Source: a phage
DNA: 56,145 bases
Reading direction: 5' to 3' (one strand)
Sequence record: PZ386950.1
The position numbers and the translations under genes are program-made. The notes beneath the pieces were generated by a model. That model did not search any database. It was given only the letters and a program-made list of their open reading frames with translations, and was not told the DNA's origin. Positions 31,414-49,339 of the stretch are shown here, one piece after another (position 1 is the first letter of the stretch; the number at the start of each line of letters is the position of its first letter).

Positions 31414-31626
31414 ATCTTCAACCGATACTTCAATCCACGATGCGGGAACCGGATATTCAGTCCGGTACATGAACAAGGATGTTCCTATCAACCCGTGTGG
31501 ATCTGTTTTAATCCCTCGCATGTTCAACAACGGAAAAAACTGTTCGCGTGTTTGTGGCAATCGTGCAAAGCGTCCTGTCGGGCGTTTAGCAGGATCCATA
31601 GGGTTGAATTCAACGATTGTGGACAT
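31393..31626 (-). CDS. hypothetical protein
   Basis: 77-aa ORF at end of minus-strand replication operon. Confidence 0.45.
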   Translation of the reverse strand: MSTIVEFNPMDPAKRPTGRFARLPQTREQFFPLLNMRGIKTDPHGLIGTSLFMYRTEYPVPASWIEVSVEDLLKTVY

Positions 31627-32131
31627 AACAATAACTCCTGTACGCTTGTCGTTTTATTTTCTGATAGTCGGAAACTTTTACAGATCTCGTTTTACATTCA
31701 CCGATATGATGTGGGTCGAAAACAAACATCACCTGTGAACGGTCATTTCCGCCTGCAGGTAACCCGGTGTCAGGATCTACAAACGCTATACGACCTTTAA
31801 ATACCCATAGTTCTGAACAATGTGTCAGTGCTTTATGAAACCAGTCTGCAGACGTCATAGCGTTCACAAGTAATAACGAACCAGTTCCCTGATAAACAGT
31901 GGTTATTATTTTATTAACCCAGGGGGACGGATCGCTGTACGGTGGGTTACACCAGACGAACCCACCACCATTACTTTGAACAATCGAATGCCAGTCTTTA
32001 TTCAGACTATCAGTGATAAACAACGAACATTTAGCGTTAGAACCATCGGTACACACATCAAGAACAAGTGGGAATTCACGAGAAACATTATCAATAAAAT
32101 CCCACGGTGTTTCCCAGTTGTCTTTAGCCAT
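31610..32131 (-). CDS. dam: DNA N6-adenine methyltransferase (phage Dam-like)
   Basis: FVWCNPPY catalytic motif, WETPWDF N-terminus; trimmed to ATG 32131 (MAKDNWETPW). Confidence 0.8.
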   Translation of the reverse strand: MAKDNWETPWDFIDNVSREFPLVLDVCTDGSNAKCSLFITDSLNKDWHSIVQSNGGGFVWCNPPYSDPSPWVNKIITTVYQGTGSLLLVNAMTSADWFHKALTHCSELWVFKGRIAFVDPDTGLPAGGNDRSQVMFVFDPHHIGECKTRSVKVSDYQKIKRQAYRSYCYVHNR

Positions 32132-32477
32132 GTTCCGGTACGCTCTCCACGCTGTAATACACAGGAATACCCAGACGTTCAGCTTCTGCAATTTCCGCAA
32201 TAGTCCCGGACGAACGACGATAATCAGGAAGCACCAGAACAGCGTCACACCGACGCATAACTTCTAATGTGCCTGACAGGTAGTATTCGGGTTGTATATT
32301 GCGTAAACCACCGTCAAAGTCCCACAATTCGGTGTTTTTGTGAGGGATGATCGGGAACCACCCCGGACGTTGTAACGCCAGTCGTTTACCTGCCTGTTCA
32401 GCGCGTGACACGTTACGGGAGGTTTTAAGCGCACAATCAGCACGATAAGGCCCGGCAATGTAACAGAGTTTAATCAT
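32124..32477 (-). CDS. DUF4406-like protein (nucleoside 2-deoxyribosyltransferase-like fold)
   Basis: CYIAGPY...CDAVLVLPDY...GTIAEIAEAERLGIPVYY pattern; trimmed to ATG 32477. Confidence 0.55.
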   Translation of the reverse strand: MIKLCYIAGPYRADCALKTSRNVSRAEQAGKRLALQRPGWFPIIPHKNTELWDFDGGLRNIQPEYYLSGTLEVMRRCDAVLVLPDYRRSSGTIAEIAEAERLGIPVYYSVESVPEHG

Positions 32478-40871: not shown

Positions 40872-43226
40872 ATGAAAGGGTTACTGAACCGTAAACAGTG
40901 GGTCATGTGGCGGCTTGAGACAGTCGCCGATCGTCCAAAACCAACGAAAGTACCATACAGTCCGGTACACGGTTACAAAGCCAGTACCACTAATCCTAAC
41001 GACTGGTCTGACTATCACACCGCGTTAGGTATGGCGCAAATGTACGGCATGTCTGGTGTTGGTTTTGTATTCACAGAAAACGACCCTTATTTCTTTATTG
41101 ATGTCGATAACTGTCTGGTAGATCAGGCAACAGCTACGTGGTCACCACTGGCGCATGAATTCGTAAACCGTTTTCCAAATGCTTACACTGAAGTCAGTCA
41201 GTCAGGAACAGGTTTGCATATAATCTGTGCTTATACCAGCATACCGGAAGGTTTTAACAGTCTGAACGACCAGAAAACCGGGCTGGAAATGTACTGGCGT
41301 GATCGTTTCGTCGCGATGACGCTCACGGGTAATGGTGATGTTGATATTGATTATACCCAGGGTATTCATGATTCTATTGCCCGGTATGGTCGCATCCGTT
41401 CAGACCGTTCCGCACGCTGGACAACAGCACCCTGTGATGACTGGTCAGGCCCGGCAGACGATGATGAACTGATTAAAATGGCGTTAAATTCGTCCAGTGC
41501 TGCTTCAGTATTTGGTAATAAAGCGTCATTTGCGGATCTGTGGAATGCAAACGTTGAACGCCTGTCTGTGTCATATCCCAGCGACCAGGGAAAAGACTAC
41601 AATGCATCTGCCGCTGATGCTGCCCTGTGCTCACACCTTGCTTTCTGGACCGGGAAAGATTGCGAACGTATTGAACGTCTATTTAACCGTTCCGGGCTGG
41701 TTCGTGGTAAATGGACAGACCGTCAGGATTACCGTGAGAATACGATTCTGGGCGCTGTGGAACGTTGCGATACTGTTTATCGTAGTCAACCGACGCTGAC
41801 ACCAGAACTGATGAAAGCAGTCACACCAGCGCCTACCATCGTTCCTAACGGTGGAACACCTGCGTACATGAGTGTGAAACCCGGTGAAGGTGCATATGGT
41901 TCAAACCACACGGTTAACGCATCCACTTTCGTTAATAACTATTATCCGAACAACACATTGATTTTCGTCCAGCAACAACCATACCGGTTCAACGGTCGCG
42001 TGTGGGAACGTGTCAGTGAAGATGAACTGAAACATCAAATTTCTATGGCAATGCTCGCCAGCGAACCAAAAGCTGACGTGATTAATGGTACGTACAAGGT
42101 TTTGTCGTATTTATTCACACGGGCTGATCGTGAGCTTGGAACATGGCCCGGCGTTGATGTATCACACTATATTGTTTGTCAGAACGGGATACTGGATGTA
42201 CACACGGGTAAATGTGATGCACATAACCCTGATTTCTTTACGACCAGTATTTTACCGTATAGCTACGATCCATTTGCTCGTGCACCAGCGTTTGAACAGT
42301 TTTTAAATACAACTCTGGAAGGTGATCAGGAACGTATTGCATTGTTGCAGGAATGGCTGGGTTACATGCTTGTCAACTCGTATGACTATCAGAAAGCGAT
42401 GCTGTTGATTGGTGCACCACGTTCCGGTAAAGGTACGATTGGTCGCATCATTCAGGCACTGGTAGGTGATGAAGCGTATGCAGGGATCACACTGGAGGGT
42501 TTAGCAAGTGATGCGGTACTTGAAACTGTGCTGGATAAATCTGTGCTATTTATCGGTGATGCTCACAGTGTGTCCGGGCCTGATCGCAACCGAATTCTGG
42601 ACCGTTTCAAATCTATTACAGGTTGTGATGCGATTCCGGTTAATCGTAAATATAAAGGTGCATGGAACGGTCGTTTACCGGGACGTATGACACTGGCTGC
42701 TAACAACATACCTGCATTTGCTGATGATTCCGGTGCAATGGCTAACCGTTTGCTGATCCTACCATTCAACATTTCGTTCCTGGGTCGTGAAGATACCACT
42801 CTGGAAGCACGACTGATGAAAGAACTACCGGGGATCTGTAACTGGGCGATTGAAGGTTTACAACGGTTACGTGCAAACGGACGGTTTACTGAACCAAAAG
42901 CAAGTCTGGAAGAACGTCAGGAAATTATGGATCAACAATCACCACTTAGAAGTTTTATCAGAGATTGTTGCGAATTGGTATCTGATGGTGAGGTGCACAC
43001 TGAAGAACTCTATGGTCGTTATCGTCTCTGGAAAACACAGGAAGGTGGTCCAGCAATGACTAAAACTGCATTTAGTCGGGCGTTTAAATCCACCCTTCGT
43101 GGTAAAGTGAAAAAAGACGTTGTTAATATAAATAACGTTCGACTAAACGGTTTCAGGGGTATTCGTCTTCTCCCTTTTCAGTCAACAGCTAATGTAGTGC
43201 CTTTCCCACCTGCGAGTAACGGTTAG
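40872..43226 (+). CDS. primase-helicase (primase-polymerase N-terminal domain plus P4/D5-type SF3 helicase)
   Basis: N-terminal SQSGTGLHIIC, C-terminal Walker A GAPRSGKGT. Confidence 0.8.
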   Translation: MKGLLNRKQWVMWRLETVADRPKPTKVPYSPVHGYKASTTNPNDWSDYHTALGMAQMYGMSGVGFVFTENDPYFFIDVDNCLVDQATATWSPLAHEFVNRFPNAYTEVSQSGTGLHIICAYTSIPEGFNSLNDQKTGLEMYWRDRFVAMTLTGNGDVDIDYTQGIHDSIARYGRIRSDRSARWTTAPCDDWSGPADDDELIKMALNSSSAASVFGNKASFADLWNANVERLSVSYPSDQGKDYNASAADAALCSHLAFWTGKDCERIERLFNRSGLVRGKWTDRQDYRENTILGAVERCDTVYRSQPTLTPELMKAVTPAPTIVPNGGTPAYMSVKPGEGAYGSNHTVNASTFVNNYYPNNTLIFVQQQPYRFNGRVWERVSEDELKHQISMAMLASEPKADVINGTYKVLSYLFTRADRELGTWPGVDVSHYIVCQNGILDVHTGKCDAHNPDFFTTSILPYSYDPFARAPAFEQFLNTTLEGDQERIALLQEWLGYMLVNSYDYQKAMLLIGAPRSGKGTIGRIIQALVGDEAYAGITLEGLASDAVLETVLDKSVLFIGDAHSVSGPDRNRILDRFKSITGCDAIPVNRKYKGAWNGRLPGRMTLAANNIPAFADDSGAMANRLLILPFNISFLGREDTTLEARLMKELPGICNWAIEGLQRLRANGRFTEPKASLEERQEIMDQQSPLRSFIRDCCELVSDGEVHTEELYGRYRLWKTQEGGPAMTKTAFSRAFKSTLRGKVKKDVVNINNVRLNGFRGIRLLPFQSTANVVPFPPASNG

Positions 43227-43245: not shown

Positions 43246-43285
43246 AAAATAATTCTTGACGAATTACAGACGTGTGCGCTATAGT
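43246..43285 (+). promoter_or_regulatory. sigma70-type promoter with UP element (copy 8)
   Basis: AAAATAATTCTTGACGAATTACA plus 18 bp and TATAGT. Confidence 0.65.
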
Positions 43286-44015: not shown

Positions 44016-44196
44016 CCGTTTAATTACTGTTATCGTGTTCCTTGTGTCCGTAACACTAGCGTCTTGTATTGTCGGACTAATGACCCGTGGTAATCATGCG
44101 GAAACTCCGTGGTGGTTTCTGGCGGGTCTTGGATTATTAGCGGCTGCTGCATCAATTGGCGCTTGCATGTGGGGAGTGAAAAACGATCATGACTGA
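43999..44196 (+). CDS. small membrane protein (two TM helices)
   Basis: 65 aa with two hydrophobic helices. Confidence 0.5.
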   Translation: MKNIFDRLITVIVFLVSVTLASCIVGLMTRGNHAETPWWFLAGLGLLAAAASIGACMWGVKNDHD

Positions 44197-44404
44197 GTTC
44201 GGTGCTGTAATCAAAAAAGAAGACCGTTATGCACATATTGACACCAGGATTACCTGGGTTGATATCAGTGAAGCTACTCTGTTCAGTTCAACTTACATGG
44301 CTGGTGTTGCACTTAAAGCACTTCGTGATCAAGGTTTCAATTGTAAAAAAGTAACAATCGCGCCTGTTAAAATCACGCGGATCGTCGAGGAGACAGAAGG
44401 ATGA
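44189..44404 (+). CDS. hypothetical protein
   Basis: 71-aa ORF, ATGA overlap downstream. Confidence 0.45.
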   Translation: MTEFGAVIKKEDRYAHIDTRITWVDISEATLFSSTYMAGVALKALRDQGFNCKKVTIAPVKITRIVEETEG

Positions 44405-45081
44405 AAATTGTCTGGTCATTATTCGACGGTTCCGGGATTATGGGTTTACCGTGGGCTAAGGCTGGCTATCAGGTTTATTGCTTTAATGCTGATTCCGGTA
44501 ATCACGGGGAATATAAAATCAAAATGCAACACCCCAATCTTCATTACATTAATCAATGGATTGATCCACAGTTTGCAATTAAGCGGGAAATACTGGGAAC
44601 ACCTTTACCGTCAATTATTTTTGGTTTTCCGGATTGCACCCTGTTTGCTCAAAGCGGTTCGCAACATGACCGGGATGACGCTGAACTACAGTATGCACTG
44701 GCAAACGCAAAACTGATCCGTGAACTCGGAGAACGTTATAACGTACCCTGGATGGTCGAAAACCCTGTCGGTGCTTTATCGCGTCCTGAAATGATGGGGA
44801 CACCTGACGCTTATTTTCACCCATGGGAATATGGCGGTTATATGACAACAGATGACAAACCTTTTCACCCTAAAATGCCGATGTTTGACGGGTACACGAA
44901 GAAAACGTGTCTGTGGTTCGGTAACGGTTTCAGAATGCCTGAAAAACGTCCCGGACCGATTAACATCGGCTTTTTCTGGGGCTGGAAATATCTGGGTGGT
45001 AAATCTGAAACAACTAAACAGTTACGTTCATTAACCCCGCGTGGTTTTGCTCGCGCTGTATTTGAGGCTAATAAACAATGA
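44401..45081 (+). CDS. short DNA (cytosine-5)-methyltransferase-like protein
   Basis: motif I SLFDGSGIMG, motif IV-like GFPDCTLFAQSG, motif VI-like ENPVGAL; only 226 aa with no recognisable target-recognition domain. Confidence 0.5.
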   Translation: MKIVWSLFDGSGIMGLPWAKAGYQVYCFNADSGNHGEYKIKMQHPNLHYINQWIDPQFAIKREILGTPLPSIIFGFPDCTLFAQSGSQHDRDDAELQYALANAKLIRELGERYNVPWMVENPVGALSRPEMMGTPDAYFHPWEYGGYMTTDDKPFHPKMPMFDGYTKKTCLWFGNGFRMPEKRPGPINIGFFWGWKYLGGKSETTKQLRSLTPRGFARAVFEANKQ

Positions 45082-45473
45082 TAATAGTCGTTACAGGTGG
45101 TCGTGACTTCAACGACAGAACAGCAGTATTTTCCGCGTTAGGACTACTTCACAAACAATTCCCCATTACCGAACTAATTGAAGGTGGTGCGTCAGGTGTT
45201 GATAACCTGTGTAAGCAATGGGCGCAATTACACGGTATTCCTGTACGTAGTTGCCCGGCAGCATGGGACGATCTGACTGTACCAGGTGCGGTTGTAAAAC
45301 AAGGTAAGCACGGGCCTTATAACGCTGTTGCAGGTCATCAACGTAATCAGGCGATGTTAGAGGGTGAGCCACGCCCTACATACGGTGTTGTGTTCCCCGG
45401 TGGTCGTGGTACTGCTGATATGCACCGTCGCATGTTGAAAGCTGGTTTAACTGTGTGGGTGCCGTATGGTTGA
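45078..45473 (+). CDS. SLOG-family protein (DUF2493-like)
   Basis: IIVVTGGRDF ... EGGASGVD Rossmann-like motifs in 131 aa. Confidence 0.55.
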   Translation: MIIVVTGGRDFNDRTAVFSALGLLHKQFPITELIEGGASGVDNLCKQWAQLHGIPVRSCPAAWDDLTVPGAVVKQGKHGPYNAVAGHQRNQAMLEGEPRPTYGVVFPGGRGTADMHRRMLKAGLTVWVPYG

Positions 45474-45828
45474 TGCGTATCATATTACTAAAGTGGAAAA
45501 CCGTGAAAGTATCCTGATGAAAGGTATCGTACCAGGGATAAAACTGATCACCAATAATTTAGATGGTCGTCAGGGATTAGGTGTTCCCATCCGTTCCTGT
45601 AGTTATGATAATTTATACGGTTTCCACCCCGTGTTCATTACCTTTAATCCTGTTGAGGCTATATCAATAATGAGTTATCGTGGTTCTGCTGATGAATGGT
45701 GTGTTGCTGTTATAAACGCTACTAATTTACAACATAAACCCGGTCGTTTTTCGTGGGAGTCAATCACTGATTATGTACCTGCTGATTGTATAAAACGTTT
45801 CGAACCCCTGACCAACTTCTTAAAATAA
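45466..45828 (+). CDS. hypothetical protein
   Basis: 120-aa ORF; stop overlaps promoter copy 9. Confidence 0.45.
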   Translation: MVDAYHITKVENRESILMKGIVPGIKLITNNLDGRQGLGVPIRSCSYDNLYGFHPVFITFNPVEAISIMSYRGSADEWCVAVINATNLQHKPGRFSWESITDYVPADCIKRFEPLTNFLK

Positions 45829-45860
45829 TTCTTGACAGATTACCAAACCTCCCCGATAAT
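45822..45860 (+). promoter_or_regulatory. sigma70-type promoter with UP element (copy 9)
   Basis: AAAATAATTCTTGACAGATTACC plus 17 bp and GATAAT. Confidence 0.65.
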
Positions 45861-45894
45861 TAGCCTCAGTTAACATACATGAGGCTAAACACAA

Positions 45895-46662
45895 ATGGCT
45901 AACATTAACTCCCTTCGCAAGCTGTCTGATACCGATAAAACCAACGTAAAACGTGGTAATGCATATCGTATTGATCCGCGTATCATCAAGATTCGCCCTG
46001 GTCATAATCCACGTGGTGTGTTTACCGACAACTACTGGGAAACTGAAGCAGCACTGGCACACATTGAAAACTTTCGTCAGGCTTATACCAACGGCGATTT
46101 CGTTCCACCGATCGTGGTACAGGTTGTTGATGGTGTTCCTTATGTTCAGGATGGTGAGCATCGTTTACGTGGCGTATTGGCAGCTATTGAGGCCGGGACG
46201 CCGATTCTGACAGTAGACGTTGTTGAATCGTCCGGTGACGAACTACAACAGACCCTGACACTGTTAAAAGGTAATGAAGGTAAACCGTGGTCCCCTGTTG
46301 AACGTGCTGTTATTTACGGTCGTTTCCGTTCATATGGCATGAGTGTTGAGCAGATTGCTACACAAGTCGGTAAAACCGTTCAGCACGTTTACGAACAACT
46401 GAATATTCTTGATATGCCGCTGGAACTTAAACGTCGTATTCAGAACGGTGAAATCAGCGCATCAGCAGCCATACGCCAGTTCAAAGCAGGTGATAAAGAA
46501 CCAGTAATAACGCGTCGTCCGCCTGCTAAACTGGTACGATCTGCAGTGGAAGCAATCCGTGGTGAATGGTCTGTAACCCGCCAGGAAGGTGGTAAAGTCC
46601 TGGTTGAACTTACCGCTGAACAGTTCGAAGCGTTAAAAGCACTGAAGGAGCACCAGTTATGA
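45895..46662 (+). CDS. ParB-like nuclease domain protein
   Basis: VQDGEHRLRG motif and HTH-like middle region. Confidence 0.6.
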   Translation: MANINSLRKLSDTDKTNVKRGNAYRIDPRIIKIRPGHNPRGVFTDNYWETEAALAHIENFRQAYTNGDFVPPIVVQVVDGVPYVQDGEHRLRGVLAAIEAGTPILTVDVVESSGDELQQTLTLLKGNEGKPWSPVERAVIYGRFRSYGMSVEQIATQVGKTVQHVYEQLNILDMPLELKRRIQNGEISASAAIRQFKAGDKEPVITRRPPAKLVRSAVEAIRGEWSVTRQEGGKVLVELTAEQFEALKALKEHQL

Positions 46663-48539: not shown

Positions 48540-48773
48540 ATGAAAATTAAAAATATGGCTGCAAGTGGTCTGTCAGGCCGTATCTTTTACGGTACGATGG
48601 AAACAAAAGACGGTGGTCAGTCTGGTAAATGGTTAGCAGGAAAGCAAGACGTTACTGATATGGCGATCCGCGCCGTTGCTGAACATTGTCATCTGACAGG
48701 AAACGAATATTCATTTACTATTAACGACGGTCGTGTGATTACACTGACAGTAACAGAGGTACAACCATCATGA
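48540..48773 (+). CDS. hypothetical protein
   Basis: 77-aa ORF. Confidence 0.45.
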   Translation: MKIKNMAASGLSGRIFYGTMETKDGGQSGKWLAGKQDVTDMAIRAVAEHCHLTGNEYSFTINDGRVITLTVTEVQPS

Positions 48774-49339
48774 CACCTGAACAATTTGCAAAAGCAGCAC
48801 ACGGTGATCAACTGCGTAAATATACCAACGACCCATATGTTAACCACTGCCGGAACGTTGCTGAACTGGTTAAACGCTATGGTGGTACGCCGGATATGGT
48901 TACTGCTGCCTGGCTGCATGACGTCGTTGAAGATACGCCCGTGACCGTGGGTGATGTGTGTTCGCAGTTCGGTGAGACTGTGGCACGTTATGTTGATCAG
49001 CTTACTGATGTGAGTCGTCCACACCACGGCAACCGTGTTAAGCGTAAAGCACGGGACATCGACCATTTATCACGGGCTGAACCTGTGGTGAAAACTATAA
49101 AACTGTGTGATCTGCTGGATAACACCTCTTCAATTGTCCGACACGATCCGAAGTTTGCTGTAACTTACCTGGCTGAAAAACAACTCATGCTTGCTCATCT
49201 GTCAGACGCAAGCAACCAGGAGTTATACGCGCTTGTTGAGCGTGAATTGTTTAAAGCCAAATACAAACTAACGAACGTCCAGTTGACCGCGTTTGACAAG
49301 CACTACGACGCACTGGTTAAAGCGATGGGGAATCTGTGA
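48770..49339 (+). CDS. HD-domain phosphohydrolase, SpoT/Mesh1-like (putative (p)ppGpp hydrolase)
   Basis: HGDQLRKYTNDPYVNH ... AAWLHDVVEDT matches the RelA/SpoT hydrolase-domain signature. Confidence 0.65.
   Translation: MTPEQFAKAAHGDQLRKYTNDPYVNHCRNVAELVKRYGGTPDMVTAAWLHDVVEDTPVTVGDVCSQFGETVARYVDQLTDVSRPHHGNRVKRKARDIDHLSRAEPVVKTIKLCDLLDNTSSIVRHDPKFAVTYLAEKQLMLAHLSDASNQELYALVERELFKAKYKLTNVQLTAFDKHYDALVKAMGNL

Follow-up and report, generated by a model that had tools for sequence, protein, structure and literature searches.

A predicted compact Dcm-like C5-methyltransferase in a probable mosaic of accessory genes of a 9NA-like siphophage

Introduction

Dcm of phage K42, a KarlJaspers-like member of the Drexlerviridae, is the trigger of retron Ec86/Eco1 (bioRxiv 10.1101/2023.08.16.553469). 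The K42 mutants that escaped the retron all carried disruptions of the 711-bp dcm gene, whose product is 236 amino acids (aa) long; the protein was modelled against DNMT3A, and residues C82, E128, K175, and K176 were mutated (bioRxiv 10.1101/2023.08.16.553469). Expression of wild-type Dcm raised the level of 5-methylcytosine (5mC) on the multicopy single-stranded DNA (msDNA) of Ec86, as measured by mass spectrometry coupled to liquid chromatography (LC-MS), and activated the retron, whereas the C82A/E128A/K175A/K176A protein neither increased 5mC nor activated the retron (bioRxiv 10.1101/2023.08.16.553469). In the same study, K42 Dcm functioned alone when expressed from a plasmid (bioRxiv 10.1101/2023.08.16.553469), and the K42 Dcm/Ec86 result was restated by a later paper. 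Here, we analyzed a gene of the same family carried by a phage sequence of 56,145 nucleotides (record PZ386950.1), which we refer to as the window. A first-pass annotation, made from the sequence, had described at positions 44401-46662 a short 226-aa C5-methyltransferase-like protein, a 131-aa SLOG/DUF2493-like protein, an unknown 120-aa protein (here ORF120), and a ParB-like protein, and had suggested that the grouping could be a DNA or nucleotide modification system or an anti-defense module. We judge it likely that this stretch is a mosaic of independent accessory genes, among them a compact orphan Dcm-like C5-methyltransferase, and that it holds no dedicated multigene system.

Results and discussion

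A compact protein with a predicted C5-cytosine methyltransferase fold

The Dcm-like gene occupies positions 44401-45081 on the plus strand. The three C5-methyltransferase motifs reported in the first-pass annotation were all found in its 226-aa product: motif I (SLFDGSGIMG, residues 6-15, with FDGSG at residues 8-12), motif IV (GFPDCTLFAQSG, residues 75-86, nucleotides 44623-44658), which contains Cys79, and motif VI (ENPVGAL, residues 120-126, with ENP at residues 120-122, from nucleotide 44758). The same annotation had considered the protein too short to hold a target-recognition domain or the C-terminal motifs, which was right in part. Approximately 35 residues lie between YTKKT (residues 165-169) and RSLTP (residues 209-213), a drastically reduced target-recognition region, and the chain ends 13 residues past RSLTP, with no recognizable motif X (GNAV-type). 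However, a VIII-like segment (YTKKTCLW, residues 165-172) and a IX-like segment (RSLTPRGFARA, residues 209-219, with RSLTPRGFA at residues 209-217) are present and invariant in the family.

Structure prediction, which had been proposed as a check, clearly assigns the protein to the fold of C5-cytosine methyltransferases. Comparison of the AF2 model (pLDDT 90.7) with known folds returned the catalytic domain of C5-cytosine methyltransferases, with DNMT3 enzymes as the closest structural neighbors and 8yf3, a C5-carboxymethyltransferase entry, among the top ones. On the basis of this model, the gene very probably modifies DNA. The catalytic domains of DNMT3A and DNMT3B likewise have a reduced target-recognition region, but their sequence identity with the 226-aa protein is just 12 to 13%. 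DNMT3A and DNMT3B work as DNMT3L-assisted oligomers bearing regulatory domains. With the canonical C5-methyltransferases (M.HhaI, M.HaeIII, and E. coli Dcm; PF00145), the protein shares the FxGxG of motif I, the Cys of motif IV, the EN- of motif VI, and a IX-like R-x-L-T-P-R. In contrast to them, it is ∼100 residues shorter, without their large target-recognition domain and recognizable motif X, and has YxKxT where their motif VIII reads QxRxR. It also lacks their Pro-Cys dipeptide, as its Pro stands two residues before the Cys.

A common and partly characterized phage methylase family

The 226-aa protein matched phrog_757 ("DNA methyltransferase") over residues 1 to 225 with an E value of 2.5e-79. 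Its homologues fall into 637 clusters at 90% identity and at least 894 at 50% identity, nearly all of them 200 to 260 aa long and matching end to end. The short length of the protein is the norm of the family and not the result of a truncation. A tblastn search with the protein gave matches in 1,492 of 50,697 phage records, and the family is found in Drexlerviridae, Webervirus-like Klebsiella phages, Dhillonvirus, rV5-like and Phapecoctavirus-like myophages, and Arthrobacter and Vibrio phages. In the phages of the BASEL collection, phrog_757 members are annotated as "Dcm-like C5 cytosine methyltransferase," a label also carried by the 62%-identical copy of PaulSarasin. The cluster had initially not been recognized as a described one; to judge from these matches, its methyltransferase belongs to a known, named, and very common phage family, of which the K42 member has been shown to raise 5mC.

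Among 80 diverse family members, C79, E120, P122, P141, Y165, K167, T169, and P180 (numbering of the 226-aa protein) are invariant, and near-invariance extends to the segments F-P-x-C-T...G, E-N-P, Y-x-K-x-T-x-x-W, and R-S-x-T-P-x-G-F-A. The first-pass annotation had also pointed out that the catalytic Cys sits in PDC. Indeed, an Asp and not a Pro precedes Cys79 (F-P-D-C-T), but the residue at this position varies across the family: 57 of the 80 diverse members have P there, and 42 of 54 close members have D. By contrast, the Pro located two residues ahead of the catalytic Cys is almost invariant. PDC is a clade variant.

The comparison with K42 Dcm was made via the matching 711-bp gene of Warwickvirus XY3. 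The product of this ORF (open reading frame) is 236 aa long and has precisely the residues C82, E128, K175, and K176. The XY3 protein is 42% identical to the 226-aa protein over the full length (E value of 2e-61), and C79, E120, K167, and K168 of the latter align with the four residues mutated in K42 Dcm. Genes of the XY3 type, at 89 to 100% identity, are present in ∼94 Tempevirinae genomes, including that of BASEL phage FritzSarasin, where the product is again labeled "Dcm-like C5 cytosine methyltransferase." In the GenBank entry of XY3 (L008:2254-3199), the dcm ORF is extended by 21 codons upstream (774 bp) and is accompanied by an overlapping ORF named "putative cytosine DNA methylase"; the 711-bp ORF starts at an internal ATG and fits the K42 gene length and residue numbering.

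K42 Dcm and the 226-aa protein thus compared are of the same family and architecture (236 aa and 226 aa, respectively), keep the catalytic C/E/K/K set with an E-to-K spacing of 47 residues in both, and are both encoded by orphan phage genes lying among replication genes. They differ in phage lineage and in neighboring genes. They also differ in the segment between the VIII-like and IX-like motifs, the presumed target-recognition region, which is unrelated in sequence, so that the two proteins may have different target motifs. The window contains 95 CCWGG sites, with an observed-to-expected ratio of 0.72 against the Markov expectation and yet above the composition expectation, a count that is uninformative on target or selection.

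We considered whether the protein of this PDC clade might not be a sequence-specific methylase of double-stranded DNA and might instead act on single-stranded DNA or hairpins, RNA, or free nucleotides, transfer another group, or be a catalytically weak binder. This is unlikely in our estimation, as the protein keeps every catalytic residue that is invariant in the family and the tested member, K42 Dcm, yields 5mC in DNA. Asp78 in place of the canonical Pro would fit such a protein, but the residue before the Cys varies naturally (P, D, E, V, or S), and the prevalence of D among the close homologues argues for a functional protein. The target-recognition region of ∼35 residues and the C5-carboxymethyltransferase 8yf3 as one of the top structural neighbors also point to another activity or substrate. 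Finally, host Dcm, which is also a CCWGG methylase, leaves Ec86 untriggered while phage Dcm triggers it (bioRxiv 10.1101/2023.08.16.553469), which may hint at another substrate preference, for example, for the msDNA hairpin.

A DNA cytosine methylase remains our preferred assignment, and the mechanism would be as follows. The 226-aa protein would bind S-adenosylmethionine through the FDGSG loop, and Cys79 would attack a flipped-out cytosine at C6. The base would be activated and held by Glu120 (ENP motif) together with Lys167 and Lys168, and the methyl group would then be transferred to C5. The likely role of the protein would be to methylate the DNA of the replicating phage and thereby weaken restriction, possibly at the cost of being sensed by retron Eco1/Ec86. 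The SLOG, ORF120, and ParB-like genes would act independently, the first two as cassettes moved by recombination.

Adjacency of the Dcm-like and SLOG genes is largely confined to one lineage

The ORF listing gave four consecutive genes on the plus strand with the ATGA coupling, as originally described. The Dcm-like gene and the SLOG gene (131 aa, positions 45078-45473) are joined by an ATGA overlap, CAATGATAATAG; the SLOG gene and ORF120 (120 aa, positions 45466-45828) overlap by 8 nucleotides (nt); and the ParB-like gene (255 aa) follows at positions 45895-46662. On the other side, a plus-strand ORF for a 71-aa hypothetical protein (phrog_26050, positions 44189-44404) is ATGA coupled to the Dcm-like gene, and it is kept in relatives with or without Dcm.

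The Dcm-like gene was present in 1,492 phage records and SLOG in 642; with a union of 2,067 obtained with a fused Dcm+SLOG query, ∼67 records contained both. The two genes were adjacent in 14 of the ∼2,067 records. Thirteen of these belong to 9NA-like Escherichia, Salmonella, and Klebsiella phages, and the 14th, phage ETEP102, is a single-piece match of 84%. In the 4-kb flanks of 80 Dcm-like loci from IMG/VR, SLOG was nearby in 6, all of them 9NA-like and with a 9NA-type ParB, a ParB-like gene was found in 9, and ORF120 was found in none of the 80. The SLOG neighborhoods of Seuratvirus and Kuttervirus contained unrelated hypothetical genes and lacked Dcm, ParB, and ADP-ribose-related genes. 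A Pfam scan of ten longer Dcm-like proteins revealed an HNH_2 domain in one and a fusion to SLOG in none.

Presence and absence of the genes between the 71-aa ORF and ParB were then compared in nine relatives of the 9NA-like lineage. The window and BDX09P1 have Dcm, SLOG, and ORF120. PDP46 has Dcm, SLOG, and a 76-aa gene; Sergei, Sasha, and Solent have a 51%-identical Dcm allele, SLOG, and HNH; and IMG/VR sequence L016, whose Dcm is 99% identical, has Dcm, SLOG, and HNH. In L006, the order is Dcm, a 67-aa gene, SLOG, an ORF120 homologue, and HNH. Dcm is missing from AVIO78A (SLOG and NADAR) and from Bas82 (a 65-aa gene, SLOG, and the 76-aa gene). SLOG is missing from 9NA (Dcm, a 65-aa gene, and an HNH fragment) and from L003 (Dcm, a 65-aa gene, an ORF120 homologue, and HNH). 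Hence, Dcm, SLOG, and ORF120 each come and go independently within the lineage, and the ParB-like gene is in every genome.

Two features of these loci bear on how the genes are exchanged. Salmonella phage Sergei (L013:2903-3604, compared with window positions 44401-45081) has flanking genes 97 to 99% identical to those of the window, the phages being otherwise ∼96% identical, around Dcm alleles that are 51% identical. Such divergent alleles at one position indicate allelic replacement by recombination. In addition, the cassettes that follow SLOG start within the same 8-nt overlap, with MVDA... for ORF120 and MVDS... for NADAR, and this overlap at the SLOG stop codon marks a recombination joint.

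In view of these distributions, it is very unlikely that the Dcm-like and SLOG genes, possibly with ORF120, form one DNA/nucleotide-modification or anti-defense module in which, for instance, SLOG would supply or sense the nucleotide ligand of the methyltransferase. The ATGA and 8-nt overlaps suggest cotranslation, and the 13 9NA-like records with adjacent genes include Klebsiella phages whose DNA is ∼80% identical, as well as phages of the Sasha type, in which Dcm is 51% identical. However, SLOG occurs without Dcm in AVIO78A and Bas82; Dcm occurs without SLOG in 9NA, L003, e270, and >1,400 other phages; and ORF120 occurs without SLOG in L003 and is missing from the closest IMG/VR relative, that with the 99%-identical Dcm. 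No other lineage showed the adjacency, the lone outside record, ETEP102, being a single-piece match of 84% that was not examined; SLOG fusions were absent from the ten longer proteins; and K42 Dcm works alone from a plasmid. Co-occurrence across phage genomes, the check that the first-pass annotation had put forward for its multigene module, was not conserved in either the phage records or IMG/VR, and all combinations of the genes exist within the lineage. The Dcm-SLOG adjacency is best read, from these comparisons, as inherited synteny of one lineage and not as functional linkage.

Several observations weigh against a mosaic containing an orphan DNA methylase. PF00145 scored 12 bits against the 226-aa protein, below its cut-off of 22 (E value of 0.14), and over the N-terminal half only; the family profile had no match at an E value of ≤0.01 among PDB sequences; and M.HaeIII was reached in PDB by single-sequence search with an E value of 0.48. 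Since the PDB sequence searches gave nothing significant, only the fold comparison tied the protein to C5-methyltransferases. K42 Dcm has PPC where the 226-aa protein has an Asp before the catalytic Cys, and the CCWGG specificity of K42 Dcm was assumed from host Dcm and backed just by msDNA mutants (bioRxiv 10.1101/2023.08.16.553469). As to an anti-restriction benefit, the first BASEL paper found methyltransferase content to be unlinked to restriction resistance in Drexlerviridae. Lastly, Dcm and SLOG are translationally coupled in the window, and 13 genomes of the lineage keep the two side by side, even with a Dcm allele of only 51% identity. The BASEL completion paper reported that the Nonanavirus isolate Bas82 is markedly sensitive to restriction-modification and that the group has no recognizable extra functional locus; neither BASEL paper suggests hypermodified DNA.

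We propose annotating the gene of the 226-aa protein as that of a compact orphan C5-methyltransferase of the Dcm-like type, and we hold that the cluster is not worth pursuing as a new modification system, as nothing found ties the SLOG and ORF120 proteins to the methylase. The family itself matters, since retron Eco1 is triggered on sensing one of its members. Close relatives with and without Dcm (this phage versus AVIO78A and Bas82) are natural isogenic-like pairs in which costs and benefits of the gene could be studied. The remaining interest lies in target recognition by minimal C5-methyltransferases of 220 to 240 aa, in the Asp-Cys variant, and in the alternation of ORF120 with NADAR.

The SLOG protein and the cassette slot downstream

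The 131-aa protein matched the Pfam family YAcAr (PF10686) with an E value of 5.3e-20 and 71.4 bits, well above the cut-off of 28.2, in agreement with its earlier description as SLOG/DUF2493-like, and phrog_289 with an E value of 9.8e-24. Its phage relatives (the 642 records mentioned above) span many lineages. It contains GGASGVD (residues 36-42) and PGGRGT (residues 107-112), which we take to resemble the signature loops of DprA and LOG proteins. We know of no YAcAr/DUF2493 SLOG member with a demonstrated biochemical function. In phage ICP1, this domain is the C-terminal part of the accessory helicase HelB, and in Streptomyces it is fused to DciA. The 131-aa protein shares with these fusions the Pfam family and the phage and replication-associated contexts but differs in standing alone. 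Given the fusions to HelB and DciA, it probably binds, by analogy, a nucleotide-derived ligand or DNA.

Relatives of ORF120 amounted to only 7 clusters among 5.8 billion proteins; the phage records with a match numbered 3, and all of these relatives are from 9NA-like phages. A profile search of the same 5.8 billion proteins gained only two further members of the lineage. The AF2 model of ORF120 was poor (pLDDT 60), and with this model no structural match and no ADP-ribosyltransferase fold was found. The sole matches of the protein were those of its N terminus, AYHITKVENRESILMKG, to DarT, with nonsignificant E values of 0.2 (Pfam, PF14487) and 1.3 (PDB, 7omu); a Pfam scan of all six family members found this similarity, of ∼20 residues, in two. 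By these searches, ORF120 is a lineage-restricted orphan, and the cassette slot that it occupies downstream of SLOG is swappable. AVIO78A has NADAR in this slot; Sergei, L006, and L016 have HNH; and PDP46 and Bas82 have the 76-aa gene. In Escherichia phage AVIO78A, the gene equivalent to window positions 45466-45828 (L012:3391-3813) encodes a NADAR protein (Pfam E value of 1.4e-22), and its GenBank label, "ParB-like protein," is wrong.

This alternation raises another explanation, in which SLOG and its downstream cassette (ORF120, or NADAR in AVIO78A) would be a small NAD/ADP-ribose-related counterdefense unit, ORF120 being a minimal DarT-like ADP-ribosyltransferase or a decoy. NADAR does lie in the exact slot of ORF120, with its start in the same 8-nt overlap, and SLOG/YspA domains have been described as associated with ADP-ribose-type ligands; yet the slot also takes HNH endonucleases and the unrelated 76-aa gene, ORF120 occurs without SLOG, and the SLOG neighbors in the two other phage lineages have no ADP-ribose-related domains. 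DarT is the one protein that the N terminus of ORF120 matches, but the similarity is not significant, is limited to ∼20 residues in two of six members, and is not echoed by the poor structural model, which matches no ADP-ribosyltransferase. We therefore hold this explanation to be highly improbable. Equally slim is the chance that ORF120 is a new, very small NAD-utilizing or ADP-ribose-related counterdefense protein alternating with NADAR, which would make SLOG and the cassette an unrecognized two-gene anti-defense unit. A swappable slot in a mosaic of independent accessory genes is the reading we retain.

The ParB-like gene, its promoter, and an inverted repeat

The earlier assignment of the 255-aa protein as ParB-like held: it matched HTH_ParB (PF17762) at residues 133-192 with an E value of 1.4e-6 and 28.8 bits (cut-off, 22.6) and phrog_1033 with an E value of 3.5e-59. 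The gene was present in 9 of the 9 relatives compared, and full-length matches were found in 25 phage records. Like the ParB/KorB proteins of phages and plasmids, the 255-aa protein has, besides the HTH_ParB domain, a DGEHRLRG box (residues 86-93) resembling the ParB arginine patch, and its gene has its own promoter-like site. It differs from them in its score against TIGR00180 (E value of 2.5e-9), which at 37 bits is below the curated cut-off of 58, and in that the window yielded neither a ParA partner nor repeated parS-like sites; the annotation of the close relative PDP46 also lists no ParA-like gene. Because the phage group is virulent, a plasmid-partition role is unlikely. The gene is a conserved anchor of the 9NA-like lineage, and its product is most likely a DNA-binding regulator or organizer.

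The gene had been described as having its own strong promoter. A near-consensus sigma-70-type promoter-like site, TTGACA-17-GATAAT (11 of 12 positions), is present on the plus strand at positions 45832-45860 and precedes the ParB-like start codon by 35 nt, but such a promoter is not universal. It is kept, with the inverted repeat that follows it, in 7 of the 9 relatives whatever cassette lies upstream, and PDP46 and Bas82 lack both. This repeat, TTAGCCTCA-N11-TGAGGCTAA (positions 45860-45888, plus strand), lies between the −10 element and the start codon. A further exact copy of the repeat was found at positions 45063-45071, and its recurrence in the window was not above chance. In L003, L006, and 9NA, the arms show joint changes (TTAGCCTCA/TGAGGCTAA versus TCAGCCTCA/TGAGGCTGA) or G-U-compatible substitutions. 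As the substitutions are compensatory or G-U compatible, the repeat is predicted to be either an RNA leader hairpin in the 5′ untranslated region (5′-UTR) or an operator.

Lineage context and other features of the phage

The window belongs to a 9NA-like siphophage. The DNA of the region is 94 to 96% identical to that of Sashavirus BDX09P1 and of E. coli phages PJ16 and PDP46, and ∼83% identical to that of Salmonella phage 9NA. The stretch lies in the early/replication arm of a virulent siphophage of this group (Sashavirus/Nonanavirus). Just 3′ of the primase gene, a plus-strand promoter-like site, TTGACG-18-TATAGT (10 of 12 positions; positions 43256-43285), is weaker than the ParB site. It is the probable start of a transcription unit that would span the small ORFs and the Dcm-like, SLOG, and ORF120 genes. 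This site is a consensus match only, as 11 promoter-like sites were found in the region versus 9.9 expected, which is not above chance; a promoter is annotated at the equivalent place in the AVIO78A record.

The 784-aa "primase" itself (positions 40872-43226, plus strand) combines an NrS-1 polymerase-like helix-bundle domain with D5_N and DUF5906, and by this domain content is a D5-type primase-polymerase/helicase fusion. Downstream of the ParB-like gene, a 189-aa protein (positions 48770-49336, plus strand) is 98% identical to PDP46_0095. Proteins of this type bear conflicting annotations among the relatives, namely, RelA/SpoT-family (p)ppGpp synthetase, metal-dependent phosphohydrolase, and polyphosphate hydrolase.

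On the minus strand, positions 31610-32131 encode a small DNA N6-adenine methyltransferase, identified by 95 to 96% DNA identity to the annotated PDP46 gene. By the same identity, the overlapping gene at positions 32124-32477 (minus strand) corresponds to one annotated as a 2′-deoxynucleoside 5′-phosphate N-hydrolase (DNPH1-like). With respect to restriction sites, GGTACC and GGCGCC are absent from the window (0 versus 11 and 0 versus 9.5 expected, respectively), and CCGCGG (1 versus 4.6 expected) and CTAG (12 versus 54 expected) are strongly depleted. The scarcity of these four sites suggests an avoidance of restriction sites that is not related to the Dcm-like gene.

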